Part shown: in pieces, positions 4,812-56,364 of the stretch
Numbering within the stretch: the stretch's first letter is position 1
Layout of the letters: every line of letters starts with the position of its first letter
DNA from: Candidatus Pacearchaeota archaeon
Lineage (GTDB): Archaea; Nanobdellota; Nanobdellia; UBA10117; JABICX01
DNA: 64,000 nt
Assembly (NCBI GenBank): GCA_017608025.1
Contig: JAFCGM010000002.1
Coordinates: 6,250-70,249, forward strand
Direction: 5' to 3'
The notes under the pieces: model-generated
What the model saw: only the letters and a program-made list of their open reading frames with translations
What the model was told of the DNA's origin: nothing
Database searches by the model: none
Position numbers and translations under genes: made by a program

Positions 4812-4980
4812 TTTTTCTTGATTAATCTTCTTTTTTGAAAAGAAGATTATGCGGAGAGGAGGATTGTGTAACCCTGGGAATCCCCTTTCAAAAAGGGTCT
4901 TCCAACCTTCAAACGCATTGTGGATTGTTTTCTTGATTAATCTTCTTTTTTGAAAAGAAGATTATGCGGAGAGGAGGATT
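4812..4980. repeat. 53-bp direct repeat containing the tRNA-Leu 3' end and its downstream hairpin, flanking a 62-bp insert
   Basis: ttttcttgattaatcttcttttttgaaaagaagattatgcggagaggaggatt at 4812-4864 and 4928-4980. The insert carries the ccctttcaaaaagggtcttccaacc motif. Confidence 0.85.
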
Positions 4981-7430: not shown

Positions 7431-7710
7431 TAATATTTTTTGTTAATGTGTTGTGTTTATAAAGGTTTCCTTATTTTTTTAGAAAAAGGCAGATTGCCAA
7501 AAATTTGCTCTCTGAGCAAAAATATTTTTTTGACAATTTATAGTGCACAATCGCCTGCTGAAAGCTATTGCTCAAATATATATTTTTTCGCTCCCTACAT
7601 TCTACGCAATTATTCTCATTTTTTCTTTTTGGGCAACTTATAGTGTTTTTTTCTTTAAAAAAGAAAAACCCGCGCTAAAAAGAAACTACTTTTCTAAAAA
7701 GAAATGGCAG

Positions 7711-10729: not shown

Positions 10730-10808
10730 TTTGAAGTGAAAACCTTTTCAAAAGGACATTAATTTCTTTTGGCAACTTACCTTTTCTTTTCTAAAGAAAA
10801 GGCAGAGA

Positions 10809-12514: not shown

Positions 12515-12690
12515 TATCTTTTCAAAAAAGCTCCGCAAAATTCTCGCTTTGCTCGAAATTGAGAAAGATTAGTCTCGGTGCATGATTTTTTTGAGAGCAG
12601 TTTACTTGTCATGGAGCTTTTCAAAAAAGCTCCGCAAAATTCTCGCTTTGCTCGAAATTGAGAAAGATTAGTCTCGGTGCATGATTAAGC
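12515..12690. repeat. Two tandem ~97-bp units, each a family-B hairpin element plus a copy of the last 20-31 bp of secY
   Basis: ...gagcttttcaaaaaagctccgcaaaattctcgctttgctcgaaattgagaaag + attagtctcggtgcatgatttttttgagagcag. The genuine secY 3' end is at 12780-12812. Confidence 0.8.
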
Positions 12691-12779
12691 TTTTTTTAGA
12701 AAAAAGCTTGCAAAAAACAAAAAAATAGTTTTTCTTTGGGAAACTTACACTTTCTTTTTTCTAAAAAGAAAGGGGAGAG

Positions 12780-14171
12780 TTAGTCTCGGTGCATGATTTT
12801 TTTGAGAGCAGGATACATGTCAAATGCATGGTATTTTGCAATTTCCTCATAAAGCTTGTAAATAATCATAACTGTAAGTAAAATTCCTGTTCCACGACTC
12901 AATGCTCCGGAAATGTCTGCTAATGCTGCAAGGAAACCGACAAGCGCTCCACCCATTACAGTTAAAGCAGGAATGTATCTGTTGAGAATTGATTCAAGAA
13001 CGCGAGGGTCTCTCCTAAATCCTGGGATTTGCAATCCAGATGATAGAATTTGCTTTGCCTGAGCATCTGCGCCCATATTGGATGTCTTTACCCAAAGTAT
13101 TGAGAAGATAATTGCGCCAACAACCATAATTGAAATGTAAACCACTGTTTGCAGAATTATTTCTCCTGTTGCTGTGCCTGAAACAATTGAACGAATTATA
13201 TCTGGAGAATGAACCCATTTTACAATTCCAGAAGTTGGTGTTGAACCTTCAAAAGTTCCAAAAATCGGCATTCCTAAATTTTGGAAAAGTCTAGCAAGTA
13301 GCTGTATGTTTGCCAGCAAAGCAGCAATAAGAATAACGGGAATATTAGAACTGTAAATAAATCTTAATGGCCAGCGCATTCCATATCCGCGCACTCGGCC
13401 AAAAGAAAGTGGTATTTCAACTTTCATTGCCTGACCATAAACTGCAATTAAAAACACAACAATTGTCGCTACAATTGCTATTAAAGCAATTAATGCACCA
13501 AGAGAATCTCCCATTCCAAGGGCTTTGAAAATGTAAGGGATTTTTCCTGCAGGAATGTTTGGATTTGTTGGTGATGGCAAAGGATTAAATGCTGCAATGA
13601 AAATCTGTCGAGCAACTCCTCCTGCAATAAACAAGCTTACTCCTGATCCGAAACCCCATTTTTGAACAACCTCATCTAACAAAACTAAAAGGTAACCTCC
13701 AATAATTAGCTGTCCTACTAATCCGAGCTGAAGCCAAAGATACTGACTTGTTCCTGCAAGCTCTGCAGCAGGGGCGAGTCCACCCATAAAAACATAAATA
13801 ACAGCTTCTAAAATTATAAAGCCGATTGTGAAAACTTTTTGCATAGCCTGGAATTTCTTCTTTCCTTCCATAGTTGTAAGGTCTATATTTATTAATCCAG
13901 AACCAGCAAGAAGCTGAAGAATAATAGATGCTGTTACAATAGGACCAATACCTAAAGAAACTATTGAACCAAAACTTGCTCCAAGAATAATTGAAAGAGA
14001 TTCAAATTGAGAAAGAGCGTTTTGTCCAAGGCCTTGAAGAGGGATGTGAAGCAAAACAAAATAGAGTACTAAAACCCCTGCAGTCCATTTAAGCTTTGTT
14101 TTAAAACCAAGCTTTTTTGTCTTTGGGGAAACTATTTCAGGCAAAAATGAGTTTATTAGCTTCCAATTCAT
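12780..14171 (-). CDS. secY: Preprotein translocase subunit SecY
   Basis: 10-TM SecY/Sec61-alpha sequence. Last gene of the spc-like operon. Confidence 0.95.
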   Translation of the reverse strand: MNWKLINSFLPEIVSPKTKKLGFKTKLKWTAGVLVLYFVLLHIPLQGLGQNALSQFESLSIILGASFGSIVSLGIGPIVTASIILQLLAGSGLINIDLTTMEGKKKFQAMQKVFTIGFIILEAVIYVFMGGLAPAAELAGTSQYLWLQLGLVGQLIIGGYLLVLLDEVVQKWGFGSGVSLFIAGGVARQIFIAAFNPLPSPTNPNIPAGKIPYIFKALGMGDSLGALIALIAIVATIVVFLIAVYGQAMKVEIPLSFGRVRGYGMRWPLRFIYSSNIPVILIAALLANIQLLARLFQNLGMPIFGTFEGSTPTSGIVKWVHSPDIIRSIVSGTATGEIILQTVVYISIMVVGAIIFSILWVKTSNMGADAQAKQILSSGLQIPGFRRDPRVLESILNRYIPALTVMGGALVGFLAALADISGALSRGTGILLTVMIIYKLYEEIAKYHAFDMYPALKKIMHRD

Positions 14172-16840: not shown

Positions 16841-17619
16841 TTCTTATTATTCTCCTTTTTGCTATCTTGTGTTTTTGGTTTGTTTTTTGTTTCAGGCTTT
16901 TTTGATTCTGATTCTTTAGTTTGTTTGTTTTCTTTGTTAGGGGCGGTTTCTTTTGCTACAGTCCTTCTGCTGAAGGGACCCACAGCAGTGCTATCTTCGC
17001 CTGGCTCGATATCACTTTTATTTTCTTTGTTAGGGGCGGTTTCTTTTGCTGCTTTTTTTATTTTGGACAAAATCTCCTGCTTTTTCTTTTCATCAATTTT
17101 TTTCTTCTTTTTAATATCTGCAACTTCCTTGTCTTTTTTCTTCAGCTCTTCTTGTCTCTTTTTTTTCTTTTCTGCTTTTTCTTTTTTCTGCTTCTTTCTT
17201 TTTTCATAAGACTCTTTTATTTTCCTTATTTCAGAGTCAAGGTTTCTTATGTTTGAAAATGATATTTTTTTGCTTTTTGCTTTTTCGAGAATTTCAAGGC
17301 GTTTCTTGCTTCCTATTTTTGAAGACAAAATTGCGAAATTTTTCTCTGGATTGAAGTTTTTTAAATCATTGTGATTTTCAACTCTAAAAGGAGTTTTTCC
17401 TTCTTCATTTGCATGCCTTAGAATTGAAATTGTTTTGAATCCAATTGAAACCATCTTTGGTTTTCCTCGTCTTCTAAGCCTTAATTTTGACTGAACTCCG
17501 CGAGGCTTTCTCCACTTTGTTCCAAGCCGTTTTCTCCTGTGAGATTCCTGCCTTTTGAATTCTGGCATTTTCTTTTTTATTTTTTTCTTCTGCTTGGAAA
17601 GTTCTTTTAATGATTTCAT
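16837..17619 (-). CDS. rpl32e: Ribosomal protein L32e (eL32) with ~140-aa K/E-rich C-terminal tail carrying an in-frame repeat-element insertion
   Basis: eL32 core (RRKRLGTKWRKPRG...) followed by a low-complexity tail. Tail contains ...EDSTAVGPFSRRT... flanked by an exact 30-bp duplication. Confidence 0.85.
   Translation of the reverse strand: MKSLKELSKQKKKIKKKMPEFKRQESHRRKRLGTKWRKPRGVQSKLRLRRRGKPKMVSIGFKTISILRHANEEGKTPFRVENHNDLKNFNPEKNFAILSSKIGSKKRLEILEKAKSKKISFSNIRNLDSEIRKIKESYEKRKKQKKEKAEKKKKRQEELKKKDKEVADIKKKKKIDEKKKQEILSKIKKAAKETAPNKENKSDIEPGEDSTAVGPFSRRTVAKETAPNKENKQTKESESKKPETKNKPKTQDSKKENNKK
16958..17020 (-). repeat. Family-A short element (63 bp), in frame inside the eL32 tail
   Basis: gtccttCTGCTGaagggacccaCAGCAGtgctatcttcgcctggctcgatatcac, flanked by exact 30-bp direct repeats (16928-16957 / 17021-17050). 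Confidence 0.85.
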
Positions 17620-19992: not shown

Positions 19993-20515
19993 TGTTTTTT
20001 CCTCCTTTTGAATCAGTTTTTACTGGCTTTATTGTTTTTGTTGATGATTTTTCAATTGCTTGCTTTCTTGTCCTTCCAGCGAAGGGACCCACGCTGGCGC
20101 TATCTTCGCCTTTGGCTCGATAGCTCTTAGATTGTGATGATTTTTCAATTGCTTGCTTTCTCTTCTTGTCAGATAAATCAATATCAATTATTTGAACATT
20201 TGAAGGAGATATTGGGTATTTAATTACTCGGCCTTCTTCTTTTTTGAATTCTGCTTTTCTGACAAAGATTTTGCTCTTTTTTAGAGACACTTTTTCAACT
20301 TCTCCAATCAATCCTTTGAATTGGCCTCTAAGGATTTTTACCTTGTCTTTAACTCGAATTGGAATGTTTCTTGTATTGTATTTTTTTCGCAAATCTTTTG
20401 AAAGTAAAGCAGACATAAACTTTCTTTTTACATGAAGCGGAGAATTGAATCGATATTTCCTCTGCTTTCTAGGCTGTTTGCTTGACTTCCATTTTTTAGA
20501 CCAAAGAGTTTTCAT
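19985..20515 (-). CDS. rpl24: Ribosomal protein L24 (uL24, KOW) with C-terminal tail carrying an in-frame repeat-element insertion
   Basis: KOW motif KVKILRGQFKG. Tail contains ...EDSASVGPFAGRT... flanked by an exact 27-bp duplication. Start taken at MKTLW. Confidence 0.85.
   Translation of the reverse strand: MKTLWSKKWKSSKQPRKQRKYRFNSPLHVKRKFMSALLSKDLRKKYNTRNIPIRVKDKVKILRGQFKGLIGEVEKVSLKKSKIFVRKAEFKKEEGRVIKYPISPSNVQIIDIDLSDKKRKQAIEKSSQSKSYRAKGEDSASVGPFAGRTRKQAIEKSSTKTIKPVKTDSKGGKNNE
20069..20134 (-). repeat. Family-A short element (66 bp), in frame inside the uL24 tail
   Basis: gtccttCCAGCGaagggacccaCGCTGGcgctatcttcgcctttggctcgatagc, flanked by exact 27-bp direct repeats (20042-20068 / 20135-20161). 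Confidence 0.85.
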
Positions 20516-20520
20516 TTTGA

Positions 20521-20925
20521 TTATAACATTATGCTTGCTGTTTTTGCCACCTGAGACCATCGATATGCAACTTCTTTTGCAATCGGACCTTTAATTAAAG
20601 TACCTTTTGGTGTTCCCAAACGAACATCACGCAAAACAATTCCTGCATTGTCCTCAAATTTAACTTTTGTTCCGTCAGGTCGGGAATATTCCTTTTTTTG
20701 CCGGACAATAACGACAGGAACAACTTGGTGCACCATGTCTGGCTTTCCTGCCTTAACAGCAACAGTAACCAAGTCAGAAACGCCTGCAGAAGCAAGCTTT
20801 CTTGTTCTTGTCTTATAACCGCGAACAGAGATTATCTGTCCAAGTCTTGCTCCTGAATTATCTGCTATGTTAATTACAGTTCCCAAAGGCATGCTTTTTG
20901 ATATTCTTGTTTTTACTGATTTCAT
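20521..20925 (-). CDS. rpl14: Ribosomal protein L14 (uL14)
   Basis: MKSVKTRISKSMPLGTVINIADNSGAR... uL14 sequence. Confidence 0.9.
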   Translation of the reverse strand: MKSVKTRISKSMPLGTVINIADNSGARLGQIISVRGYKTRTRKLASAGVSDLVTVAVKAGKPDMVHQVVPVVIVRQKKEYSRPDGTKVKFEDNAGIVLRDVRLGTPKGTLIKGPIAKEVAYRWSQVAKTASIML

Positions 20926-20936
20926 TTTTTGTCCTC

Positions 20937-21090
20937 TGTCCTTCTGCTGAAGGGACCCACAGCGGTCGTGTAAAGCTTTGCTTCACACAACGGTTTAACT
21001 CTAGTGACTGTCCTTCTGCTGAAGCCACTCATAGCAGTGCTATCTTCAGAAACAAAGTTTCCTTGATAACAGGTATTTAGCATTATAGGA
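20937..21090 (-). repeat. Two tandem family-A elements (A3a 20937-21008, A3b 21009-21090) inserted at the S17 stop / L14 start overlap
   Basis: Flanked by 26-bp direct repeats ttcattttttgtcctctgtccttctg (20921-20946 / 21091-21116) that each contain the ATGA overlap. Confidence 0.8.
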
Positions 21091-21091
21091 T

Positions 21092-21463
21092 TCATTTTTT
21101 GTCCTCTGTCCTTCTGTTTATTGAATCTATTTTTTCATATACAACAAATTTCTTTGTTTTGGAAATTGGCCTGCATTCTGCAATTTTAACTATATCTCCT
21201 TTTTTTGCATTGATATGTTCTGGAAGATGAGCTTTGACTTTTGAGCTTCTTTTTTCATATCTTTCATATTTTGGAATTTTAATGTGCCTTGACCACTTTA
21301 CTGTAACAGTTTTCATCATTTTGTCAGAAACAACTGTTCCTGTAAAGACTCTACCTCTCAGAGGTATGCTTATTTTTGGAGATTTATTATTTTTTTCCAA
21401 TTCATTCACCTTTTGCTTGGTTTTCTCGTGTTTTTTCATTTTTTTATTTTGAGCCGATCCCAT
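21092..21463 (-). CDS. rps17: Ribosomal protein S17 (uS17) with Lys-rich N-terminal extension
   Basis: uS17 OB-fold core. C-terminus ...NRRTEDKK. Confidence 0.85.
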
Positions 21464-22015: not shown

Positions 22016-22221
22016 TATTTGTTTTTTACCTCCGTATTTTTTATGAACATTAACCTAGCAATAGTTTTTCGTATCTCACGAATTCTCCCGGCATTTTCCG
22101 GAGTTGCTCCAGCACTTATTTGGGAATTCAGCTTAAGTACTTCTTTTCGCAATTCCTCTATTTTTGAATCAATTTCCTTTGAACTCATTTTTCTTGCATC
22201 TTTTGCTCTGATTATTGCCAT
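22015..22221 (-). CDS. rpl29: Ribosomal protein L29 (uL29)
   Basis: MAIIRAKDARKMSSKEIDSKIEELRKEVLKL. The 14 upstream codons in the ORF track are the repeat element, not protein. Confidence 0.85.
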   Translation of the reverse strand: MAIIRAKDARKMSSKEIDSKIEELRKEVLKLNSQISAGATPENAGRIREIRKTIARLMFIKNTEVKNK

Positions 22222-22303
22222 TGTCCTTCTGCTGAAGGGACCCACAGCAGCTCTACCGAGCAAAGCTCGATAGCGCGAATGGATTCCTTAGTTTTTTTCC
22301 TCC
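22222..22303 (-). repeat. Family-A full-length element (A4) occupying the whole S3-L29 junction
   Basis: Minus-sense: GGAGGaaaaaaaCTAAGGAAtccatTCGCGCTATCgagctttgctcggtagagctgctGTGGGTCCCTTCagcaGAAGGACA then ATG. Its first 16 nt encode the S3 C-terminus and stop. Confidence 0.85.
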
Positions 22304-24099: not shown

Positions 24100-24180
24100 T
24101 GTCCTTCTAACAAGTTCTTTGTTTGCTAGCCTCCATTATTATTTTTCTATTTATCATTTTTTTACTTGCCGCGTCCTGCT

Positions 24181-24240
24181 CCCTTTTCTTTAGAAAAGAA
24201 AAGGTAAGTTTCCAAAAGAAACTTTTTTGAGCATTGTTAT
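24181..24240. repeat. Family-E palindromic element inserted between L2 and S19 with ~30-bp target duplication
   Basis: cccttttctttagaaaagaaaaggtaagtttccaaaagaaac, flanked by tatcatttttttacttgccgcgtcctg at 24151-24177 and 24243-24269. Confidence 0.75.
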
Positions 24241-24965: not shown

Positions 24966-25074
24966 GTCCTTCTCGCGAAGGGACCCACTCAGCCGCAAAA
25001 TCGGCTGGCGCTTTCATCAGGCAGATGTTGGTCTGATGCCTGATAGCGCGAAAGTTCCTTAGTTTTTTGCCTCC
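24966..25074 (-). repeat. Family-A long element (A6, 109 bp) between L23 and L2, abutting the L2 ATG
   Basis: GGAGGcaaaaaaCTAAGGAACTTTCGCGCTATCaggcatcagaccaacatctgcctgatgaaagcgccagccgATTTTGcggctgagtGGGTCCCTTCgcgaGAAGGAC then ATG. Confidence 0.85.
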
Positions 25075-25099
25075 ATTATTTTTATCATTATTCTTCTCC

Positions 25100-27376: not shown

Positions 27377-27922
27377 TTAAAATAGTTCATCAGCACGTTT
27401 CCGTACTTTTTTATCTATGTTTCTAGTTGATAATATAATATTCTCAAGATTTTGTTTTAAATCAACAAATTGCCTATCTTTAATTCCTTTATTTTCTAAA
27501 ACACGTTTATATAAATTAAAAACACGATTAAGATTTACAAAATGCTTTCCTTTTGAATATATAACATTACTTTGATTTACAATAAATGGAAAGTCAAAAG
27601 TTCTTCCTGTTTTTCCAAGTTTATCTGTAGCTTCTGAATAAGCCTCATTAATATTCCAAATAAGTGCACGCATTGCACCTATATCCAAAACAAAATAATT
27701 AATTTCACCTGTCTGAAGATCTACAGCCTTAGCGACACCAGATAATTCATACATAAAATCAATACTTCCTGGAAGATCTCTATTTTTTAAATAATGCTTA
27801 TATTCATCAAGAAATTCTTCTTTTGTACAGCTTACAGCATGTTTTAGTTTAAAATTAAATAACGGGTCTTTTGTAAGACAATTCCACAAATCATGATTAT
27901 CTTCCCAACTTTTAGCTTCCAT
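27377..27922 (-). CDS. Hypothetical protein (orphan, inside an AT-rich gap)
   Basis: 181-aa ORF with no recognised motif. Flanked by very AT-rich spacers between the L3 operon start and tfs. Confidence 0.35.
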   Translation of the reverse strand: MEAKSWEDNHDLWNCLTKDPLFNFKLKHAVSCTKEEFLDEYKHYLKNRDLPGSIDFMYELSGVAKAVDLQTGEINYFVLDIGAMRALIWNINEAYSEATDKLGKTGRTFDFPFIVNQSNVIYSKGKHFVNLNRVFNLYKRVLENKGIKDRQFVDLKQNLENIILSTRNIDKKVRKRADELF

Positions 27923-28096
27923 TTATATACTATAATATATAAATAAATTATAATTTTTATTTAAAAAAGTTACTATTTAGGAGTAACACTGCTTTTTCTT
28001 TTGCAAAGAAAAGGTAAATCGATAAAAGAAGCAAATTATTCTTTTTTCAGAAATAGTTTTCTCTAATTTTCAGCCAGCGCTTTTTCTAAAGAAAAA

Positions 28097-28396: not shown

Positions 28397-28562
28397 GGTT
28401 TTCCTAAAAAGCCTATTCTAATTTAAAAGTGTTTCTATAGAAAAAAATAGAACACTAACTATAATATGTAAAAAAAGTAAGTATCACAAATTGTCAAATC
28501 CATAATTATATCTGCTACAGGATTTATTTTACTTTAAAAAGTGTTTGTATTCCCAAAGCTTT

Positions 28563-28656
28563 CTTAGAAAGAAAGCTTGCAAAGAACAACATTTTTCTTA
28601 GAAAGAAAGCTTGCAAAGAACAACATTTTTCTTAGAAAGAAAGCTTGCAAAAAATT
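28563..28656. repeat. Tandem repeat, 34-bp unit x ~2.8, each unit a palindrome (gctttctt-aga-aagaaagc)
   Basis: cttagaaagaaagcttgcaaagaacaacattttt repeated head-to-tail. Confidence 0.85.
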
Positions 28657-28661
28657 GAAAT

Positions 28662-28714: not shown

Positions 28715-28889
28715 AATAGCTCTTTTTCTTTTCGAGAACATTTTCTTTTTCAAAAGAAAAGGTTCAAGCGAGCCCGGAGGGATTCGATTACCTCGGCAAA
28801 CCCTTTAAAAAAGTGTTTGCATTCCCAAATGTTTTTTTCGAGCGAAGCGAGACTTTTTAGCAACTTGCCTTTTTTTGAAAAAGGCAGAG

Positions 28890-29052
28890 CGAGCCCGGAG
28901 GGATTCGAACCCTCGATCTACAGCTAACTCCAGCACATTAAAGTCTTTTAGCTTATCTTTGCAGGCATCGCATTTTGTTTGCCTGCTCAAAGCGCCAGCC
29001 AATTTTGCGGCTGTAGGAGGCTGTCGCCCTATCCAGACTAGGCTACGGGCCC
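28890..29052 (-). tRNA. tRNA-Arg(CCT) with 88-nt intron at 37/38; the intron carries a family-A repeat module
   Basis: Acceptor GGGCCCG/CGGGCTC. Anticodon stem ACAGC/GCTGT with loop CTCCTA^A. T-arm GAGGG-TTCGAAT-CCCTC. Intron contains CAGCCG-CAAAAT-TGGCTG plus a long stem. Confidence 0.65.
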
Positions 29053-29585
29053 AGTTAAAGAAAACTGCAATATCTTAATAAAACTTGCCAATTCACTACC
29101 GAAATTCTTTAATCTATGTGTTTCTATAAAATTAACATGAAAAACAAACATAGATTAATTGCTTTCTTTTTAGTACTTGTTTTTGTAGTAAGCTTCTTGT
29201 TTTTTGGAAGGATTTTCAGCATAATAGATTCTCTTTCTGATTTAACAGGCGCGGAAATTCTAAAGACTCCAGAAGAAAAGTCAGAAGAATACTCATCTGT
29301 CTGCGAGCAGAAAGACTTTTCAAAAAATTATCGCGACTGTATTTACTGGGAACAGGAAGGGGAAAAACAAGATTCTCTTTCAAAGCTTTCAGACGAAGCA
29401 GTGGAATCTTTTTGCAAAGAGCTATTTAGAATTTACAAAACTTGCGAATAGAAACATTTTTAACTGATATTTTGGGTTTAACTCATATCAGATTTGCTCT
29501 GAGCTAACTTTCGACTGTTGAACAGCAGCGGGATGTCTTTGCCAGCGCTTTTCTGAAAAGAGATATGCATCATGATCTAATGCTC

Positions 29586-29678
29586 CTTCTCGTGAAGGGA
29601 GTTACATGCGGCTGCAAAATCAGCCGGCACTTTCATCAGGCAACAAAGTACGATGCCTGATTGTGATTCACGAACACA
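29586..29678 (-). repeat. Family-A structured repeat element (copy A7), directly 5' of tRNA-Gly
   Basis: tccttctcgtgaaggga...gcggctg-CAAAAT-cagccg...ttcacgaa. Flanked by a duplicated ~20-bp tRNA-Gly 5' segment (29565-29585 / 29680-29700). Confidence 0.7.
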
Positions 29679-29681
29679 TAT

Positions 29682-29753: not shown

Positions 29754-30221
29754 TTTTTTGTGATTTCAAAAATCAGCAAAATTCATTAGAAAAAATTTCA
29801 TTAAAAAAGCAGTAGCGCCTGAGAAGATTTGAACAGAACCCCTTTAAAAAAGGGTCTTCCAACCCCAAAAACTGATTGAAGCTAAAAAAGCAAGATTAAA
29901 AAGTGTGATTTTGTTTTTTCTTAATCTAAAACTGAGTTCATTATCTTTTCAAGTTGTAAAATCATGACTGGGTTGAGGTCCTTCTTCAATGTATAGTCTT
30001 ATCATTTCATCTTGTGATTTTTTAATTAAATTAAAGAGTTTATTATTTTTCTCATAGATATTATTTTGTTTTAATTCTATAAACGAATGTGTTATATAAA
30101 GTTTAAAAAGTTAATTAAATTATATAAAAAAGAATCTTTTTAAAATATCTAAACAATACTTGCATTCCAAATATTGTTTTTCTTTGGGCAACTTGCACTT
30201 TCTTTTTCTAAAAGAAAGGGC

Positions 30222-30340
30222 AGCGCCTGGGGAGATTTGAACTCCCGACATCTTGCTTTCTCGTTTTTTCTGTTAATATTTTTGCGCGAAGCAGAAACGA
30301 GTTACGAGGCAAGCGCTCTACCAGACTGAGCTACAGACGC
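30222..30340 (-). tRNA. tRNA-Thr(CGT) with ~46-nt intron
   Basis: Acceptor GCGTCTG/CAGGCGC. D-arm GCTC-AGTCTGGTA-GAGC. Anticodon stem CTTGC/GCAAG with loop CTCGTAA. T-arm GGGAG-TTCAAAT-CTCCC. Confidence 0.75.
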
Positions 30341-30432: not shown

Positions 30433-30969
30433 ATGGACAATCTTCTGGATGATATATTTGAAAAAAGGGAAGAAGAGCAACGACAGGAAGCTAAAAAGTA
30501 TGTTGAACTTGTTCATCAAGCAAGAAAGGAAATTGATTTGGCAGACCATCTTTTTAATGTTACTTACAACGCAATCAAAGACTTGAAAATGCTTGCTGCA
30601 ATTGAAGACCACATAATAAAATCAAGTTTCTGTGCTTTGAACTCTCTTTTGGAGTATCTTCGCCAAAAACATAAGATTGAAGCATTTTCAACAAACAAAT
30701 CTGTAATGGTTGACTTGTTTGAGAGAAAAGTTATTGGTAAGTATAATTCTTTTGAGCTTAATGACATTCATTTTCTGAACAGACTAATTGACCTTGAGCA
30801 TTACATGAAAAACAGCACACTAAGATTCAAAAGAGGGACTTCTTATGTTCTTGCTTTGCCAGATTATTCAATAAAATCACTTAACTCAGATATTGTAAAA
30901 AACCATTTGTCTGTATCCAATGACTTTGTTTCTCGAGTAGAAAAAGAGTTAAATAATAATGAAGATTAA
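30433..30969 (+). CDS. Hypothetical protein
   Basis: 178-aa ORF with no recognised motif. Confidence 0.35.
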   Translation: MDNLLDDIFEKREEEQRQEAKKYVELVHQARKEIDLADHLFNVTYNAIKDLKMLAAIEDHIIKSSFCALNSLLEYLRQKHKIEAFSTNKSVMVDLFERKVIGKYNSFELNDIHFLNRLIDLEHYMKNSTLRFKRGTSYVLALPDYSIKSLNSDIVKNHLSVSNDFVSRVEKELNNNED

Positions 30970-32370: not shown

Positions 32371-32459
32371 AACTTTTGGAAAAAGTTTCATCAAAAACAG
32401 AATCATATTTTTACATTATCTCTTTTCCATATTGATTTTAGTTAAGATTCTTTAGTGCA

Positions 32460-32540
32460 GTCCTTTTAGCTAAGAGACCCACGCTGGCGACAAACATTGG
32501 TTATGAAAAGTCGCATAAGCTCTTAAATTATTTCTTTTTC
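32460..32540 (-). repeat. Degenerate family-A element flanked by diverged ~30-bp direct repeats
   Basis: gtccttttagctaagagacccacgctggcg... between attgattttagttaagattctttagtgca and atgttaattttaactaagactctttggtgca. Confidence 0.5.
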
Positions 32541-32645
32541 ATGTTAATTTTAACTAAGACTCTTTGGTGCATTTTTTGAATAAATGCTTTTTTGTCATCC
32601 ATTTCAGAAGCTTCATAATAAAACAAAAATAAAAATTAAATTTGT

Positions 32646-35894: not shown

Positions 35895-36842
35895 TTATTT
35901 TTTCAGCATTTTCTTTTTTCTTATTCTTCTATAAATGAAGAATCCTGTTACTGCAATTACTGCAAACAAAAAATATATTCCATATGGCGCTGGTTTTTGG
36001 GCTAAACCATATTTGTATAGGTCTTTCTGAGAATACACGCGAATATCTATTGTCTGCTCATCCATGTAACTTCTACTGTTTGCATCAGTATATTCAAGTG
36101 TAAATGGAAGAGTTATTATTTTAGTTTCAGGATTTTTTGAATCTGATTTAAAATAAATGTCAAAAACTGCAGTTTCAAAATCATCTGACTCAAGTTCGCC
36201 AACATAAACTTCGTGCGGTGAAAGAACAATGTATTCATCTGTTTCATCAAGTGTTATTGTCAGGTATTTTGTATTTAGTGAGCCTTTATTTACAATGTTT
36301 GTTGTAATTCTTGATTTCTTGTTAAATGATACAGAATCCAAATCTTCAATTCCCACATCAACCCTTGGCTCTCCACCAGTTTTCACTGTTATTGTCACAG
36401 ATGTTTTTTTCATTTCTTTTTCACATTCGCTGTCGCTACATGAAATAAATTCAAGAGAATAATCTCCTGCTTTTGTGTTCTCATTTACAAAAAGCCTGTA
36501 ATCAAGAAGCTTATTCGAATTTGTTCCGATGATTCCTGTGCTTTTTATTGAATCTTCTCCCGGAACAAGGGAAAACGGATATTCTGGATTTACTTTTATG
36601 TATGCATTATCCAATTGCTCATTTCCAATATTCTGGACAGATATCCAAACGCGCAGAGTGTTGTCTGGCTCAGCAGGAACTGGGTCGTAGTCCTTAAGCA
36701 CAACCTTAACATCTGCATTTTCAGCTACAAGGGCCATTGCCGCAAACGGAACTATTACTAAAATTGTAAAAAGTGCGAAAAGCACTTTAATTGCTTTTTT
36801 CATTTTCAACTCTCCCATCTTTAAGATAAAACACTTTCTCAT
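35895..36842 (-). CDS. Exported protein with C-terminal membrane anchor (ABC-transporter-associated)
   Basis: Signal-like N-terminus, beta-rich body, C-terminal TM helix plus RRIRKKK. Co-transcribed with the permease and ATPase. Confidence 0.4.
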   Translation of the reverse strand: MRKCFILKMGELKMKKAIKVLFALFTILVIVPFAAMALVAENADVKVVLKDYDPVPAEPDNTLRVWISVQNIGNEQLDNAYIKVNPEYPFSLVPGEDSIKSTGIIGTNSNKLLDYRLFVNENTKAGDYSLEFISCSDSECEKEMKKTSVTITVKTGGEPRVDVGIEDLDSVSFNKKSRITTNIVNKGSLNTKYLTITLDETDEYIVLSPHEVYVGELESDDFETAVFDIYFKSDSKNPETKIITLPFTLEYTDANSRSYMDEQTIDIRVYSQKDLYKYGLAQKPAPYGIYFLFAVIAVTGFFIYRRIRKKKMLKK

Positions 36843-39009
36843 CTCGAGCTAATTTTTCGAAACGAGAATCGTGAGTTACGATTATTAATGTCTTATTTTT
36901 GTTTTTCCACAAATCAATTAAAATCTTCACAATCTTTTTTCCTGTTTTTGAATCAAGATTTCCTGTTGGCTCATCAGCAAGAATTATTTCTGGATCGTTT
37001 GCAAGAGAGCGGGCAATTGCAACTCTTTGTTGCTCTCCGCCAGACATTTCAGAAGGAAGATGATTTTTTCTGTGCTCAAGGCCAACTATATCCAAAAGCT
37101 CTGATGCTCTTTTAATTCGCTCTTCTTTAGATATATTCTGAAAGACCATTGTAAGAGCAACATTTTCAATTGCAGTAAGGCTTTGAATCAAGTTGAATTT
37201 CTGAAATACAAATCCTATTTTGCTTCCACGAATTTGTGCAAGCTCTGACTCTTCAAGAGAGGAAATGTCTTTTCCATTAAGATATATTTTGCCTTTTGTT
37301 GGAACATCAAGGCATCCAATCATGTTCATTGCTGTAGAATTATGAACAATAAACTCATTTGCTATAAAATTATCTGCACCAGGAACAGTTATGTCATAAA
37401 CTGTTGTCTTTTTATTTATTTTTTTGACTGCAATAACCTTATCCCAAAAAATATCTGAGTCGATTAACGCAGAAAGTTTATCTGTATTGATTTTGTTTTC
37501 TGAAAGAAGATTATTAATCAATTTTAATTTATTCACTGAAGGATTAATTCTTTTAGACTCATATGGATTAAGAACTTTATGAATTCTTCTTGATACTTTT
37601 ACTTTAGACTCTCTTCTAACTTTCTGTAATAATTCTCCACAAGGAATTACATCTACATTCGTATTCTCTTTGTTTTTTAAGTGGCTAAGAAGCCTTTTTT
37701 TCTTATCTGATGAAATAAAGCCAATGTGCTTCTCATACAATTTAAGATTGTTCAATCCAGAAATAGATAATAAATAATAAAATCTATTTGTTTTTTTATT
37801 AAATTTTTTGGGGAGTCTAGAAACAATTCCATACCTCAGAAGCAAATAATTTAATTGAGTGATAAGGTCTTTGCTTGCAAGAGTTATTGCTACTTCTTTT
37901 TTGTTTTTTGAAACATAACCATCACAATCAAACAATGCCCTAATAAAAGCAGCAATTTCTTTGTTAGAACATCTAAAAACAAATTCCGGCAGTTTTATTT
38001 TTCTTGATTTAAGATTTAGAGGAAAATTAAATATTTTATTGAAAAAAATAAGTAAGACCTTATTATTAACAGCTAATCTTGTATCCATAAATTTTTTTGC
38101 ATCAACTTCAAAAATTCGATTTACTAAATAAGAAAATCTCTCATTTATTTTTGGGTCTAAATTTGTAAATTTTATTCCATCCTTATCTAAATTTCCATCT
38201 CCTGCAATAAAGCCATATAGCTCCATTAAATCTTTAGAAATCTTTTTCGGCATTCTTACTTTATTGTGCGAACCTGCAGGAGTTATATAAAAATTACACT
38301 TATATTCAGAAATATCTGTACCACAGTAATCCATAATTTTCTTAAAATTCTCCAATGAAATATTATTATTATGTTTCCAAGCATCATAACTAAAGTAATT
38401 AAATTTCAGTTTCTTGCATAATTCCTTTCCAGAAATCTTTGAATTTTTGAGAAGTTTTCGGATTAATTTGCTTGAATCAAAGAGATATAATCTTTTGTTT
38501 GCACTTGCAAGTTTTAGCAAATCAATTTCTTGTTTTTTTGGTTTTGTATTTATTTTTCTTGCTGTGGCAACAAAAATTCCTTTTTTAAGATTTGTTGCGC
38601 GAATTTCACTGAAGCCATTAGAATCTAAAGTGAAAAAGGGATGTTCTGGAGTACTTACTATTTTTTTGCCTGAAGAAGTTGTAATTTCATAAATCTGATT
38701 CGCTTCTCGTTTATAAAAATCAGAGACTCTGAAAGGTTTAATTTTATTGGATTTTCTATCTAATGCAAGAACTTTATATTTCTTATATTTTCTTTCAAAA
38801 TCTTTTAGATTTATTAAAGAGCCATCTTCCAAAAACAATTTAGTGTCTCCAGTAAGGCATTTTCCACTGCCTGATGGGCCCATTATAACAACAAAATCTC
38901 CTTGATTTACTTTAAGGCTTAGGCCTCGGAGTGCTGGAACTTCCACTGCACCCATTTTATAAATCTTCCAAGCATCTTTGATTTTAATAAGTGTTTTTGA
39001 GGAAGTCAT
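36787..39009 (-). CDS. ABC transporter ATP-binding protein (MacB/LolD-type) interrupted by a 507-aa intein
   Basis: Extein N-part ends GPSGSGK, then intein CLTGDTK...IVHN, then extein resumes [16 protein letters not shown]-like SGGEQQR, Walker B ILADEPT and H-loop all present. Confidence 0.85.
37339..38859 (-). other. Intein with LAGLIDADG homing-endonuclease domain, inserted in the Walker A P-loop (GSGK^ST)
   Basis: Block A Cys1 (CLTGDTKL), LAGLIDADG pair [11 protein letters not shown] / [12 protein letters not shown], terminal HN followed by +1 Ser. Confidence 0.8.
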
Positions 39010-39315: not shown

Positions 39316-40692
39316 ATGCTAGGCAAACTTTCTCTAATCGGATTAATTGTTGCTATTTGTGGATTTGCACTAATGTATTTAAGGCTTTTTCCGCAATTTT
39401 CTATTATTATTGCACTAATTGGTGGTGGGATTGCTGTTTTTTCTGTTGTTGCATGGATAATAAAGCACAATTCTCAAAAGATAGATGTGGACTTTAAAGA
39501 CAGTATGTTAAGCAAAACATTTGAAACCGAAGAAAAAGGATTAAAAAGAATTTTCAAGTGGGCTGCAAGAGATCGAGGAAATTTAAGAATTCTTTCAAAA
39601 GAAAGCAGAAGCATTGGTGATGATTTGTCTAGCGCTTCAAAGGAAGTGGAAAAAGAAAAGCAGGATGCTTTGGAAAAAATTGAAGAAATAAAAGAAATTG
39701 ATGCTAAAATTAATGAAATTAATAATAAAATAAAAAGTGCTGCTGAAAATGGATTTGAAGGAAATGCTGTTAAATCTCTTCAGGAAGAAAAAGAAAAATT
39801 ATTGGAGAAAAGAAAAAATCTTGCTAGAGCATATGAAAAAGAAGTTAGTGAATTTAAAGAAGCAAAGGAAGAACGCCTTGAGAAAGTCAAAGAAATTTTA
39901 AAAAAACTACAGCAATTCAGGCAAAAAATAAATACATTTGAAACAAAATTTGATATTCATTCAAAAAAAATTGTTAGTCTTGGAAATAAATTTTTGGGCA
40001 TAAATTCAGAAAAAAGTGCTGAAGATTTGAAAAAAGAAATATCAAAAAAATTGAGGCAAGAGCAAGAAGATGCTATTTCCCAATTAAAAAACTCTCGCGG
40101 AATTAAAAAATTTCTAAAAGACAAAAACATATCAAAACTGTCTGACCTTGCTACCTTGAATATTGGCAGGGTTAATGATGATTTTGAAAACATAGGAATA
40201 AAAGCAAAAAATATTGTGGAAAATTCAAAAAAATATTTTGAAATAATTCATCCGCAAGCTGAACAATTTTCAAAAAATGCTGTTATTTTTTCAAAAGCTC
40301 TTGACAAACAAAAAGAAAGAATTGTTGATGTTGAAAATCTCTGTGAAGAAATTGTAAAAAATCCGCAGATGGCAACTGAAGAAAATTTTCAGAAAATAAC
40401 AAAAGGAATGGATATAATTGGAAACTCTTTGAAAGTTCTGAGCAAAAGGGAAAAAATCCAAGTAAAACTTATTGGCCAAATTCTTCGCCTTAATAAAGAA
40501 ATGGGGGCTACGTTTGATGAAGATTTTTCAAATTTAAAAAAATATCTAAATGATATTGTAAAAGTTAGTGAAAAAACTATTATGAGAGCTATTGCTAAAA
40601 AGGATATTAAAGAAGGTGCAATTGATTCAAAAAGTCCGAGAGATAATTTAGATGTTAAAAAAGCAATTGATGAAGGTCTTGAAATAACTTAA
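39316..40692 (+). CDS. Membrane-anchored coiled-coil protein
   Basis: Two N-terminal TM helices, then ~400 aa of K/E-rich heptad-like sequence. Confidence 0.4.
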   Translation: MLGKLSLIGLIVAICGFALMYLRLFPQFSIIIALIGGGIAVFSVVAWIIKHNSQKIDVDFKDSMLSKTFETEEKGLKRIFKWAARDRGNLRILSKESRSIGDDLSSASKEVEKEKQDALEKIEEIKEIDAKINEINNKIKSAAENGFEGNAVKSLQEEKEKLLEKRKNLARAYEKEVSEFKEAKEERLEKVKEILKKLQQFRQKINTFETKFDIHSKKIVSLGNKFLGINSEKSAEDLKKEISKKLRQEQEDAISQLKNSRGIKKFLKDKNISKLSDLATLNIGRVNDDFENIGIKAKNIVENSKKYFEIIHPQAEQFSKNAVIFSKALDKQKERIVDVENLCEEIVKNPQMATEENFQKITKGMDIIGNSLKVLSKREKIQVKLIGQILRLNKEMGATFDEDFSNLKKYLNDIVKVSEKTIMRAIAKKDIKEGAIDSKSPRDNLDVKKAIDEGLEIT

Positions 40693-41950: not shown

Positions 41951-42937
41951 TTAAAACGCCTGTTTATAGTCAGGAGCGTCTCTTGGCGAAAAATCAATCT
42001 CAATATCAAAAGAAAAAATAGCTTTCACCAAAATACAAATATTATAAACCAAACATTTCAAATACAATTCATTTACTTGAGATTCAAAGTTCTTAAAATA
42101 TAATTTAGCACCAAACTTACGCTTTAATGCACTGAAGCTTGCTTCTACATTAGACCTTTTGTGATAGTGCTTATAGAATTTACTTCTATTCTTACGGAAC
42201 AGTTCCAATGAAGTTTTCCAAACACCGCTTTTTCTCTTCATTCCACAATTACTTCTGAAAGGAATATATGGAACGCCACCATAATGATGAACCGTCTCTA
42301 AATTATGCCTAGAAGAATATGCTTTATCTCCTAATACTTCATCAATCTTGAAATTCTCAGCAGTTCTTGAAACTAACTTATCAAATTCAGGAGAATCATG
42401 ACATTCACCTGTAGTAATTTCAAGAGAAGTAATTACATTCGTAAAAATCCCACACATTGCATGACATTTAACAAATTTATGCCTGTCATTATATCCGACT
42501 CTTGAATCAAACCATCTCTCATAACTATTAGTTGAGAATCCAGTCGAATCAACTGCAAACCTAGTCTCCAAGTATTTCAAAGGCATAGCAGACATCATAA
42601 GTAAATAATTCAATGTTGGGGTCAAAGATTTTCTTCTCATGTAGTCCGTAACAGAAGAATGATGTGGGACTTTTTTAATATATCCCATATCTTTGAGAAA
42701 CCATAATTGAGATGTAAGTGTTCTTGAAGGCATCCCAAAATATAACTTCATAGCTAGGCAGAAGATTACATCCTTTTGATTGTGCATTGGACGACCTTTT
42801 TTCTTTATTGGTTCCGATACAGTTTCATCCAATAGATTTCTGAGGATTTCAACAAAGAGTCTACCTTCCTTAGTTTGCGCTTTATTGTAGGAAGTCCAGT
42901 CTCTATCTTTTGTGAATTCTTTAATTTTTGATTGCAT
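41951..42937 (-). mobile_element. IS5/IS4-superfamily DDE transposase gene (IS ends not resolved)
   Basis: DDE_Tnp_1-like blocks FAVDSTGF, LGDKAYSS, EASFSALKRKFG. Confidence 0.7.
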
Positions 42938-43306: not shown

Positions 43307-43506
43307 AACCAAATTTAAAACCTATTGGAAATAAAGTACTTAGGGTTGTTGTTAATAGACGGACATTTATCAGTACAAAAGAAGTTGCTGAAAAGTCGGG
43401 CGTTTCTTGGAATACTGCTCTAACTTACTTGAGGAAGTTTTACAATAAAGGTTGGTTGTCTAAGAAGTCTGTTGGGAATCGGACTTATTGGAAGGCTAGA
43501 GTGTAA
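43303..43506 (+). CDS. Small winged-helix DNA-binding protein
   Basis: ...FISTKEVAEKSGVSWNTALTYLRKF... helix-turn-helix pattern. Confidence 0.45.
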   Translation: MKPNLKPIGNKVLRVVVNRRTFISTKEVAEKSGVSWNTALTYLRKFYNKGWLSKKSVGNRTYWKARV

Positions 43507-44636: not shown

Positions 44637-45245
44637 TTATTCACAAACCTCTTCAGTCCTGAACTTTGTAACAGGTCGTGTTTTCTCAACATCTCTGTAT
44701 CGAATTACATTCTCACAGACTTGCTTTGTAGGGATTTCTTCAACATCAAAGTCAGTATAAACCTCTTCAGTAGGAATGTTCTTTACATATTCCCACATAA
44801 AAGTCTGTTCGTCTTCTGGTTCGATGTAATGTCTACGAATTCCACCATCAACTTCTCCACTCATGCCTTGGAAAGTCATTCTGAAAGCCCATCGTCCACC
44901 TTCATCATCCATATTTTTTAGGATAAATGTATAAATATTTTTATCTTTGACGCATTCCCATTCCTTGCAGTCTCTAGTCCAAAAACTTTCTTCAATACAG
45001 TTCTGTTCAATACATACAGTTTCCATATTTACTCCCTGAATAACCTTTGATTTTAAATTAACCGTCTCACATTCTTTGCTTGTGTAAGGTTCGCTTTCGG
45101 TGTAGGTTTCATTAAATTCATACGCTATTTGAACCTCACGACATTCAGGTACAATCGGAAGTGAAACCGTTTGCCCACCCGTAAGACAACCACTAAACAG
45201 AACGATTGTTAAGATTGAGAATATGACAATAAGTGCGGATTTCAT
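44637..45245 (-). CDS. Cys-rich secreted lipoprotein
   Basis: Signal peptide with a lipobox-like LFSGC, plus many Cys/Glu residues. Confidence 0.45.
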   Translation of the reverse strand: MKSALIVIFSILTIVLFSGCLTGGQTVSLPIVPECREVQIAYEFNETYTESEPYTSKECETVNLKSKVIQGVNMETVCIEQNCIEESFWTRDCKEWECVKDKNIYTFILKNMDDEGGRWAFRMTFQGMSGEVDGGIRRHYIEPEDEQTFMWEYVKNIPTEEVYTDFDVEEIPTKQVCENVIRYRDVEKTRPVTKFRTEEVCE

Positions 45246-46860: not shown

Positions 46861-46914
46861 TACACAATAACCTCGATTATTACTCTTATTAATGAGTAAT
46901 GTATGTACCAGTCC

Positions 46915-46980
46915 TTCTAGCCAAGGGACACAAGCTGGTCGTGTACAGCAGAGCTGCACACAACTTAAACCTTAATCTCA
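46915..46980 (-). repeat. Family-A short element (66 bp) flanked by 39-bp direct repeats
   Basis: ttctagccaagggacacaagctggtcgtgtacagcagagctgcacacaac... between attattactcttRttaatgagtaatgtatgtaccagtcc copies at 46876 and 46981. Confidence 0.7.
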
Positions 46981-47019
46981 ATTATTACTCTTGTTAATGA
47001 GTAATGTATGTACCAGTCC

Positions 47020-47078
47020 GTTTCGCCCGGACTGTGCGAAAGCGCATTGCTTCGCAATGCACTATACTTTTATTTCAG
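47020..47078. repeat. Family-C structured element (copy 1), nested next to the family-A copy
   Basis: gtccg-tttcgcc-cggac hairpin plus gcgcattgc-ttc-gcaatgcac hairpin. 96 bp between flanking repeat copies. Confidence 0.65.
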
Positions 47079-47832
47079 TTATTACTCTTGTTAATGAATG
47101 ATGTACATACCATTCAAACTCATTTATTACATTATATTTTGATAGGTCTAATTTAAGGGTTTTGGGTCGAATGAAAATTATCTTGTGATTTTTCTTCACG
47201 ATTTTATGTGCTTCTTCTAAAAAAGAGTTGTAAAGAGTTTTTATTTTTTTGCCGGCGAGAGTCGAGCTTTTTCCATATGGAGGATCGCAAACAATTGCTT
47301 CAATTTTATCAGAGAACAATGAAGATATGTTTGTAGCATCTCCAATAATCACCTGCCAATCTTTTCCTTCCCTTATGTTATATTTATCAGAATAAAATCT
47401 AAGATTGGTTTTGGAAGCTTGTGCAGCTTTCCATTTAATATCTATTCCTATTCCTTTAATTCCAAGAATAGCACTTTCCAAAATAATAGAACCTGTTCCG
47501 CAAAAGGGATCTACAATTTGATTCTTAGCTTCAGACAAGTTAATTAAAAGACGGGCAAGCTTTGGTTTTAGTGCTGTTGGATGAAATGCTGGCTTTTTCT
47601 GAGGTTCTCGGTCCAGAAACTGACCAGATTTTCTTTCCCATATGCAATAATCATTTAAGTAAGCTTTTTTTATTCCTGCGCTTTTTACACACAAATCAAT
47701 TATTTTCTTAGAAGGAATTTTTTTGCTGAAAAATACATAATTTTCTTTTAATTTAGAATTAACATTAAAAAGGATATCAACCTCCCGCTTAAATGCGGAC
47801 AGGTTTTCTCCAGAAATTCTCAGCTTAATCAT
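47062..47832 (-). CDS. tRNA (guanine-N2)-methyltransferase, Trm11/Trm-G10-like
   Basis: DPFCGTGS (motif I) and DPPYG (motif IV). Confidence 0.6.
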   Translation of the reverse strand: MIKLRISGENLSAFKREVDILFNVNSKLKENYVFFSKKIPSKKIIDLCVKSAGIKKAYLNDYCIWERKSGQFLDREPQKKPAFHPTALKPKLARLLINLSEAKNQIVDPFCGTGSIILESAILGIKGIGIDIKWKAAQASKTNLRFYSDKYNIREGKDWQVIIGDATNISSLFSDKIEAIVCDPPYGKSSTLAGKKIKTLYNSFLEEAHKIVKKNHKIIFIRPKTLKLDLSKYNVINEFEWYVHHSLTRVITEIKV

Positions 47833-49748: not shown

Positions 49749-49873
49749 TTTTTCTCCTTATTTTCAATTACTTTTAAAGAGTATTTAAAAGCTTTTCTCT
49801 CCCTTTTCTTTAGAAAAGAAAAGGTAAGTTTCCAAAAGAAAACAATTTTAACTCTTACCAATAATTTATTTCC

Positions 49874-54278: not shown

Positions 54279-54395
54279 CTGTCCTTCTGCTGAAGCCATC
54301 CACAGAGCCCTTTTGGAAAAAGCGCTCGCGGAAAACGGCAAATGCGGTCGTGTAAAGCTTTGCTTCACACACGGTTTAATTCTGGTTTTAGTCCT
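54279..54395 (-). repeat. Family-A element (copy A9) filling the thrS-PLD intergenic region
   Basis: ctgtccttctgctgaagccatccacag...gcggtcgtgtaaagctttgcttcacacacgg... The gtgtaaagc/gcttcacac hairpin is shared with A3a. Confidence 0.7.
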
Positions 54396-56119: not shown

Positions 56120-56193
56120 TGTCCTTCTAGTGACGGGACCCACGCTGGCTTTACTGAACAAGCTTGATAGCGCGAAAGTTCCTTATGTCCTCC
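56120..56193 (-). repeat. Family-A element (copy A8), forming the thrS 5' leader
   Basis: Minus-sense: GGAGGacataaggaacTTTCGCGCTATCaagcttgttcagtaaagccagcGTGGGTCCCgtcactaGAAGGACA then ATG. A TTTATA box abuts its 5' end at 56194-56200. Confidence 0.75.
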
Positions 56194-56364
56194 TATAAAT
56201 TGTTTAGAAATACGGCTATTTAAATTATTCTCCGTTGCCCTCAATAAAATTAATGGGCGACAAAAGCGCCAGCTGATTTCGCGGCTGTGTGGGGCACTCA
56301 CCGTTAATAGCCATAAAATTCTTTATTGAAGAAGATTTAAAAGGTTTGTTGTAAAAAGCAGATT

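Follow-up and report, generated by a model that had tools for sequence, protein, structure and literature searches.

Does a short structured repeat that abuts the start codons of several ribosomal-protein genes act there as a regulatory leader, or did it arrive as a mobile element? We addressed this question for a repeat named Family A in a 64-kb stretch of DNA (the window), from which all element data derive and which represents one genome. The window is AT-rich (G+C ~33%), and its host is an uncultured Woesearchaeota-like DPANN archaeon, as judged from the named relatives of its L3 protein ('Candidatus Woesearchaeota / Nanoarchaeia archaeon'). The large ribosomal-protein operon lies on the minus strand, from L3 (27172) to past L18 (15871), and is syntenic with that of relatives. 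Few parts of any genome are as compact and conserved as such operons of streamlined archaea. An initial annotation had offered two explanations for the repeat, a parasite resembling MITEs (miniature transposable elements with inverted repeats) and a dispersed cis-regulatory leader such as a ribosomal-protein or L7Ae operator. We found that Family A is probably a lineage-specific, non-autonomous mobile mosaic hairpin element whose insertion duplicates a long and variable part of the target.

Every Family A copy listed in the initial annotation was recovered at, or within a few bases of, its coordinates by repeat finding, BLAST and direct reading. A scan for the 3' module GTGGGTCCCTTC-N4-GAAGGAC with up to three mismatches gave 9 matches, with 0.01 expected, and a covariance model, which the annotation had recommended and which we trained on 7 copies, recovered 11 window copies at E-values from 8e-19 to 0.005, 4 of the 11 from outside the training set. 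The matches of both searches were all on the minus strand. The family comprises ~13 copies, and its basic unit of ~57-66 nt starts with one of the hairpins H1 and H4, continues with a stem around GUGGGUCCCUU and closes with the tail GAAGGAC-A/T. The focal copy (22222..22287, minus strand, 66 nt, covariance score 73 bits) lies between the S3 stop codon (22288-22290) and the L29 ATG (22219-22221) with no base to spare; it consists of two hairpins and the 3' tail GAAGGACA, and is in frame with both S3 and L29. According to the annotation the element also encodes the end of S3. The S3 open reading frame (ORF) indeed ends at 22288, so that 22303-22288 comprises its last five codons and stop, but this stretch is native to S3 (...AAGGAGGAAAAAAACTAA) and has an equivalent (...AAGGAGACTAAAAAATAA) in the element-free L106 locus of a relative. 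The piece inserted here is therefore 22222-22287. The proposed conserved 5' terminus stood in part: GGAGG-N7-TAAGGAAC-TTTCGCGCTATC is found in the S3/L29, S19/L22 and L23/L2 copies and is truncated in the thrS copy, but GGAGG...TAA at S3/L29 is again the native S3 end.

The orthologous loci of relatives were then compared, namely L001 (5 kb, L3 identity 79%), L106 and L107 (70% L24 identity, L106 covering the entire operon), and L104 and L105 (57% identity). Across the 49 kb of syntenic DNA available for four Woesearchaeota-like relatives the covariance model had no match, and BLAST likewise found none there. The junctions that bear copies in the window are compact or overlapping in L001, L104, L106 and L107, as is the L2/S19 junction in the first three. 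In L106, the S3/L29 junction is a spacer-free TAAATG. The L23/L2 spacer measures 9 nt in L001 and 1 nt in L106 versus 134 nt in the window, S17 and L14 overlap by 4 nt in L104 and L106 (the L106 junction was called as ATGAATG), and the methyltransferase and TatD genes overlap in L104. Similarly, L24 is 126-154 amino acids (aa) long in nearly all of the more than 100 homologues listed (one has 165 aa) versus 176 aa here, counted from the conserved start. Since Family A is absent from the gap-free operons of relatives, its copies are lineage-specific insertions and not a conserved leader.

Most Family A copies are flanked by direct repeats of local sequence, a feature that had escaped the initial annotation, as had the in-frame coding inserts and the other families of like layout described below. 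The repeats match at 27/27 nt around the copy within the L24 coding sequence (20069..20134, minus strand; repeats 20042-20068 and 20135-20161), at 33/34 nt around the copy within the L32e coding sequence (16958..17016, minus strand; 16924-16957 and 17017-17050), and at 26/26 nt around two tandem copies at the S17/L14 junction (20947..21090, minus strand; 20921-20946 and 21091-21116), where they contain the ATGA stop/start overlap. Six relatives have a single RK.A.EK, the conserved C-terminal motif of L24, and the window has two (RKQAIEKSS ... RKQAIEKSS) separated by 22 residues that the element encodes; as the motif is single-copy in the relatives, the repeats are duplicated target and not parts of the element. 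Alignment of L32e gave the same pattern, AKETAPNKEN being encoded twice around the insert. In the methyltransferase/TatD spacer (46915..47074, minus strand), there are three copies (47075-47112, 46973-47019 and 46868-46914; matches of 44/47 and 33/38 nt) of the last ~16 methyltransferase codons, a stretch that in L104 overlaps the TatD start; between these copies lie one Family A element at 46915-46972 and, at 47016-47074, the degenerate relative E'. More decayed examples were found near RNA genes. A degenerate copy at 32.4 kb near the 5S rRNA gene (32460..32522, minus strand) has a 49-nt duplication of 82% identity (40/49 nt; 32411-32459 and 32523-32571), and beyond a variant that adjoins the tRNA-Gly 5' end (29583..29680, minus strand; modules H2 and H3 with a degenerate 3' module) the tRNA's first ~18 nt and the 2 nt upstream of it (~20 nt in all, at ~29563-29582) recur in slightly decayed form. 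The Family A duplications range from ~0 to 53 nt, differ at every site and measure 16-53 nt in most cases, and it is the constant 3' end of the element that abuts the duplication. Their identities, from 100% down to 82%, indicate that the process acted repeatedly and that some events were apparently recent. At S17/L14, the duplicated target begins with 10 nt that are identical to the element 3' end; consistent junction microhomology, the expectation for template switching, was rejected since it was seen at this site only.

The duplications are not confined to Family A. We counted the direct repeats that are at least 16 nt long and spaced 40-250 nt apart: the window has 22, compared with 0-2 in each of ten shuffled sequences and 5 in 47 kb of relatives, where none flanked an insert. 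Nearly all of the 22 bracket a short insert of remarkably even size (57-66 nt in nine cases; 2 x 72, 93, 100 and 105 nt in others), and many of these inserts come from other families. At least 3-4 other short families in the window show this layout of duplication, ~60-nt insert and duplication, the sites of unrelated families being at tRNA-Leu, secY, L2, tRNA-Arg and 52.3 kb.

The two copies within coding sequences each add 93 nt, element plus duplication, and thus 31 codons that relatives are without. They share one element frame (..GEDS.AVGPF.RRT) and are stop-free; being in frame as well, they should be translated, with predicted peptide stretches of GEDSASVGPFAGR over the L24 insert and GEDSTAVGPFSR over the L32e insert. 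As two of the three element frames are open, the common frame is weak evidence by itself. At S17/L14, a 57-codon ORF (20922-21095) runs from the duplicated L14 ATG through both tandem elements to a TGA that overlaps the real L14 start, and it is annotated as a gene in the source genome (P0241). Besides intercistronic positions, the Family A sites thus include coding sequence, the neighbourhoods of tRNA and 5S genes, and ordinary intergenic DNA.

The copies are mosaics in which modules H1-H5 and the 3' module are combined differently in each copy. A long variant with the extra modules H2 and H3 and a 9-codon mini-ORF occupies the entire 134-nt L23-L2 spacer (24966..25099, minus strand), and another with H4 and H5 lies in the spacer between thrS and a PLD-like gene (54279..54395, minus strand). 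Modules also occur alone, such as a solo H3 (56263-56298, plus strand), and inverted. The copy that had been placed in a tRNA intron does exist within the ~92-nt intron of tRNA-Arg(CCT), but it comprises two internal hairpin modules only, H2 and H3, in reverse orientation (28955..29017, plus strand). Two intron-containing tRNA genes, 28890-29052 and 30222-30340, were detected by Rfam though not by ARAGORN; one, at the former position, is this tRNA-Arg(CCT), whose intron, at position 37/38, consists largely of the Family A hairpin modules.

We further studied whether base pairing within the element is preserved. The compensatory changes noticed in the initial annotation are real, though few. 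The stem around the GTGGGTCCCTT loop is fully complementary both as CUGCUG/CAGCAG and as CCAGCG/CGCUGG, and four pairs of the GUGGGUCCCUU stem are altered on both sides between its two versions. This stem has a covariation score of 0.317 versus 0.188 in shuffles, a value reached by 1 of 500 shuffles, and slid controls scored much lower. Moreover, the CAGCCG/CGGCTG hairpin (H3) shows two double changes between the L2 copy and the 29.6 kb copy, and the GTGTGAAGC hairpin shows one. Reverse-oriented H3 copies still pair, using G·U on the strand that is transcribed; H1 contains a sense-strand U·G, and G·U pairs were seen on the sense strand only. These observations support the maintenance of the hairpins on one strand. 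With 2-3 independent events per helix, a requirement for RNA and one for single-stranded DNA are inseparable. GUCCCUUC and GAAGGAC form an invariant hairpin, with zero covariation, that competes with the covarying stem. The fold z-scores were ~-2, and near 0 for the thrS copy. Rfam searches with the element, by gathering threshold and by E-value, gave chance-level matches only. An L7Ae kink-turn was rejected because only the L24 and L32e copies have a GA/GAA internal loop, the hairpin being fully paired in the others, and a promoter within the element was rejected in view of a GC-rich -26 region.

The relation to start codons was as the initial annotation described it. The element 3' end stands at 0 nt from the ATG of L29, L22 and thrS (thrS leader copy 56120..56193, minus strand), at -1 for L2 and at +1 nt for the PLD-like gene, where the copy ends 1 nt short of the ATG. 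An internally shortened version (24100..24150, minus strand; GGAGGC...TTAGAAGGACA-ATG) likewise ends 0 nt from the ATG of S19. These six genes, four of them for essential ribosomal proteins, carry AGAAGGACA 0-1 nt upstream of the ATG and are without GGAGG or GAGG at 6-11 nt, the spacing that other internal cistrons use. The copies ahead of L22 (23607..23702, minus strand), L2 and S19 have a common 5' extension, a mini-ORF ending in ...GGAGGCAAAAAAC-TAA that resembles the end of a ribosomal-protein gene; ahead of L22 it has 10 codons (ATGAAATATCTTAAAAAGGAGGCAAAAAACTAA). The idea that the L22 and L2 copies owe this extension to transduction of the S3 end was downgraded, as S3 was the best match by a narrow margin (34 vs 30).

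How might Family A have spread? We propose that copies were pasted in one orientation, mostly with 16-53 nt of target duplicated on both sides, and that in a near gap-free genome with overlapping genes the survivors would be insertions that spared both neighbours. These would fall into three classes: junction insertions, in which the duplication would restore the end of the upstream gene and the ribosome-binding region of the downstream one; in-frame insertions without stops in the Lys/Glu-rich, disordered tails of L24 and L32e, insertions that may simply be translated; and insertions precisely at a stop/ATG boundary. What would maintain the hairpins is a role of one strand in its single-stranded form, in mobilisation or in the behaviour of the mRNA. 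The data show the insertion relative to related genomes, the target duplications, the fit of the reading frames, the kept hairpins and the signature common to other families, whereas a cutting or copying mechanism, an enzyme acting in trans and translation of the inserts are inferred. The long duplications of variable length point either to breaks whose stagger is wide and varies or to a target-primed copying that starts at the hairpin's fixed end.

Several results weigh against a mobile element. Terminal inverted repeats were not found, the 5' end (GAGCTATCGAG or TAAGGAAC) not being complementary to the 3' end GAAGGACA and all inverted repeats being internal, and the five or six copies next to start codons have no clear target duplication. 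The 7 or 8 of the ~13 copies that lie within the 8-kb ribosomal-protein operon are all in the sense orientation, which could reflect an RNA-level role too. Pfam and NCBIfam scans of 50 proteins (non-ribosomal ORFs of at least 100 aa, with shorter ORFs covered partly) identified no reverse transcriptase, HUH nuclease or Cas1, and no Y1 HUH transposase of the type associated with repetitive extragenic palindromes (RAYT); they did identify an intein-bearing ABC ATPase, RtcB and a Holliday-junction-resolvase-like nuclease. The only transposase of the window belongs to the insertion sequence (IS) family IS5 (41951-42937), a family known for short duplications, and it was rejected as the mobiliser since it has no termini in common with Family A. 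Limited searches found no second genome with Family A, so mobility is read from comparison rather than observed. Among these searches, a scan of 596 Gb of genome contigs with the pattern TGGGTCCCTTCNNNNGAAGG, which is too short for that size, gave single chance matches in unrelated bacteria; a metagenome scan with a 19-base pattern gave one GC-rich chance match; and four viral-contig scans gave nothing but one chance match in a giant-virus bin. A protein search with concatenated element translations had no match at E <= 10, low-complexity words having probably swamped it, and an exhaustive search with the 57-aa element ORF returned itself and two unrelated repetitive proteins only. Seven ORFs of 178-458 aa (39316-40692, 35895-36842, 44637-45245, 51412-51999, 30433-30969, 27377-27922 and 16-627) had no Pfam match, and NCBIfam gave nothing significant for the three of the seven that were scanned. 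Any of them could be an unrecognised mobility protein.

The start-adjacent copies might alternatively be cis-acting translational leaders, originally or by co-option, and to this we assign a small chance. The tail AGAAGGACA would then form an atypical ribosome-binding context, the alternation of GUCCCUUC/GAAGGAC pairing and the covarying stem would gate the start codon, and an upstream mini-ORF, or the stop of the preceding gene, would couple translation. Because the normally spaced Shine-Dalgarno sequence has been lost in six genes, an acquired role in translation initiation is possible, but the element is missing from all orthologous junctions of the relatives (57-79% protein identity), which argues that it was no ancestral regulator. 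The CAGCAG/CGCUGG segment is common to two alternative structures, one of them covarying, although the element belongs to no Rfam family and its folds are at best modestly stable by z-score. Mini-ORFs that end at the 5' base of the structure ahead of L22, L2 and S19, an open 57-codon ORF that bridges both ATGA overlaps at S17/L14, and the enrichment of copies in the ribosomal-protein operon would all suit a leader; however, the same element lies within ORFs, beside tRNA-Gly and 5S, and reversed in a tRNA intron, and placement from stop to ATG is what selection alone would leave in a spacer-free operon. The fusion to start codons on which the initial annotation dwelt could thus follow from selection where the stop-ATG gap is the sole harmless insertion point. 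The dispersed leader or operator of that annotation was not borne out, with no junction conserved in relatives, two copies inside ORFs, nothing in Rfam and the kink-turn-like hairpin fully paired elsewhere. For the six copies next to start codons, a regulatory function is possible, though unsupported.

Other explanations concern how the inserts arose, or whether they persist in the gene products. As a sub-variant of the mobile element, an RNA with a hairpin-fixed 3' end might be copied at a nicked target, in the manner of a target-primed retroposon. The GAAGGAC-A/T terminus is constant in at least nine copies while the 5' parts vary or carry a flank like a ribosomal-protein gene end, but the 5' differences are module swaps and not plain truncations, the short form apparently has a defined 5' end too (GAGCTATCGAG, three copies), and the likeness to the S3 end barely exceeds that to other gene ends. 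Duplication lengths of 0 to 53 nt next to a constant 3' end recall short interspersed elements, the 10-nt identity at S17/L14 is an overlap of the sort that target priming yields, and the single orientation of all copies and the tolerance of G·U on the sense strand only also fit; against this, the 64 kb encode no reverse transcriptase, and family F, with the same insertion signature, is found in both orientations. We know of no such retroposon-like element in archaea and consider this route unlikely. More generally, an undescribed insertion machinery acting on ~60-nt hairpin cassettes of several unrelated families and leaving 16-53-nt target duplications could represent a new kind of archaeal mobile element, possibly target-primed from a fixed 3' hairpin and sufficiently active to have spread into the ribosomal-protein operon and two ribosomal-protein coding sequences, a proposal that we make tentatively and regard as somewhat doubtful. 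That the inserts are removed as bulge-helix-bulge introns, or skipped by translational bypass between the duplicates so that the proteins are unchanged, is very improbable. Family modules do occur in a tRNA intron and the RtcB ligase is encoded nearby, but the intron copy is reversed and partial, and minimum-free-energy and centroid structures of six copies with flanks left the borders unpaired, with A-rich flanks, no border-joining helix and no bulge-helix-bulge. Identical flanking duplications could in principle serve as take-off and landing sites, and each coding insert adds exactly 93 nt; yet the coding copies are open in frame, so that removal is unnecessary, and non-coding DNA holds other families with the same duplications. 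An assembly artefact is scarcely credible. The contig is metagenome-assembled from an uncultured source, and the contig of the closest relative breaks directly after L2, which indicates that repeats trouble such assemblies; but assemblers collapse repeats and do not create insert-plus-duplication structures, the elements are below typical read length, copies and duplications differ in age with reading frames intact, and gene order is otherwise perfectly syntenic.

Compared with known systems, a mobile Family A matches none in full. Rickettsia palindromic elements (RPEs) are short palindromic repeats of one lineage that lie in frame within unrelated and conserved protein genes as well as in non-coding DNA, the inserted peptide being tolerated (PMC10969869). 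The in-frame, stop-free insertions into L24 and L32e are comparable in this mode of insertion alone, as RPEs are bacterial, ~100-150 bp long, probably unrelated in sequence and not reported to make long target duplications, whereas Family A is ~57-120 nt long, modular and mostly intercistronic. Long and variable target duplications are known from IS1634 and IS1549, at 8-514 bp and with 'no mechanistic model' (PMC2266710), and from restriction-modification gene units in several bacteria (PMC2853133). Like these systems (IS1634, IS1549 and IS1630; restriction-modification units in Helicobacter, Haemophilus and others), Family A has duplications of tens of bases that vary between sites and are single-copy at the empty site of a related genome (PMC2266710, PMC2853133), but the inserts there are kilobase-sized and gene-bearing, and here they are ~60-nt non-coding cassettes of several families in an archaeon. 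The solo and inverted modules and their mosaic combinations resemble repetitive extragenic palindromes (REPs) and bacterial interspersed mosaic elements, which are mosaics of 20-40-nt imperfect hairpins between operon cistrons with strand-specific structure. However, REPs are strictly extragenic, make no target duplication and are tied to an IS200/IS605-like RAYT; with two copies inside ORFs and no RAYT among the scanned proteins, a REP in the strict sense was rejected.

MITEs such as Sulfolobus SM, Correia and ERIC and Family A alike are structured, small and non-coding, exist in multiple copies, and can become fused to ORFs or change how neighbouring genes are expressed. The definition of a MITE, however, demands terminal inverted repeats that match those of a parent IS, together with short, fixed-length duplications, and as Family A has neither, a classical MITE was rejected. 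The MITE-like parasite of the initial annotation therefore holds for the absence from orthologous sites of four genomes, the target duplications and the scattered sites, but not for the termini or for the length and constancy of the duplications. Operators of ribosomal-protein operons are also structured RNAs directly upstream of start codons, but they are fixed at one position across relatives and mimic an rRNA site, whereas Family A is absent there, occupies several junctions and extends outside the operon. Tiny non-coding cassettes of several families in an archaeon and inside its ribosomal operon are, to our knowledge, an undescribed combination.

The 7-8 copies of a selfish repeat in the ribosomal operon show how much insertion such genomes tolerate: two copies would be translated into L24 and L32e, four essential cistrons are cut off from normal ribosome-binding sites, and long target duplications can render junction insertions harmless. 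The long target duplications common to several families are the most interesting aspect. A signature shared in this way points to one insertion process without a known enzyme, and long target duplication, known until now from large bacterial units, can thereby be tested on numerous small and recent events within one genome. Moreover, the element-adjacent starts are a natural experiment on archaeal initiation without a normally spaced Shine-Dalgarno sequence.

Among the other short families, family F is a T-rich palindrome CCTTTTCTTTTCTAAAGAAAAGG followed by TAAGTTKCCAAAAGAAA, present mostly just 3' of genes and tRNAs (24179-24237, 49799-49841, 27989-28031, 52339-52395, 52418-52474, 10763-10805, 30173-30224, 12725-12770 and 7618-7663); it resembles a mobile terminator that acts in both directions. 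A 59-nt family F hairpin in the L2/S19 spacer is flanked by a 30/31-nt duplication containing the last five codons and stop of L2, and at 52317-52496 a perfect 79-nt tandem array of 2.3 units reads X-F-X-F-X (22 nt of local sequence plus 57-nt family F). Downstream of secY, its 3' end (...AAAAAAATCATGCACCGAGACTAA) is found three times within 12518-12827, the copies being separated by an F-like element (12687-12779) and by a third family with two 100%-identical copies (12518-12568 and 12617-12667) and relatives at 649-679 and 43382-43412. At 4813-4980, a 53/53-nt duplication comprises the tRNA-Leu 3' end, a hairpin and the L18e ribosome-binding region; its insert is a 62-nt element with the hairpin GGAAGACCCTTTTTGAAAGGGGATTCC and relatives at 1084-1127 and 29828-29870. 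At 28767-28908, a 100-nt element is enclosed by a 21-nt duplication of the tRNA-Arg(CCT) 3' end; the element recurs inverted at 628-718 with 88% complementarity over 91 nt. Families A, F and H and the 91-nt family each have a hairpin whose 5' arm is rich in pyrimidines and whose 3' arm is rich in purines (4866-4927, 24179-24237, 28788-28887 and 22222-22250), the arms reading CCCTTC/GAAGG, CTTTTC/GAAAAG, CCCTTT/AAAGGG and CCTTTTT/AAAAAGG. Such arms could be a common recognition feature or just oligo-T terminators.

A tandem array of 2.7 copies of a 34-nt unit (TTTCTTAGAAAGAAAGCTTGCAAAGAACAACATT), 100% identical to one another, lies downstream of the tRNA-Arg region (28560-28661), with a related copy at 12691-12724. 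The IS5-family gene encodes a DDE transposase and has no sequence in common with any of the short repeat families. The gene for the ABC-type ATPase (36787-39009) is split by an intein with a LAGLIDADG homing-endonuclease domain.

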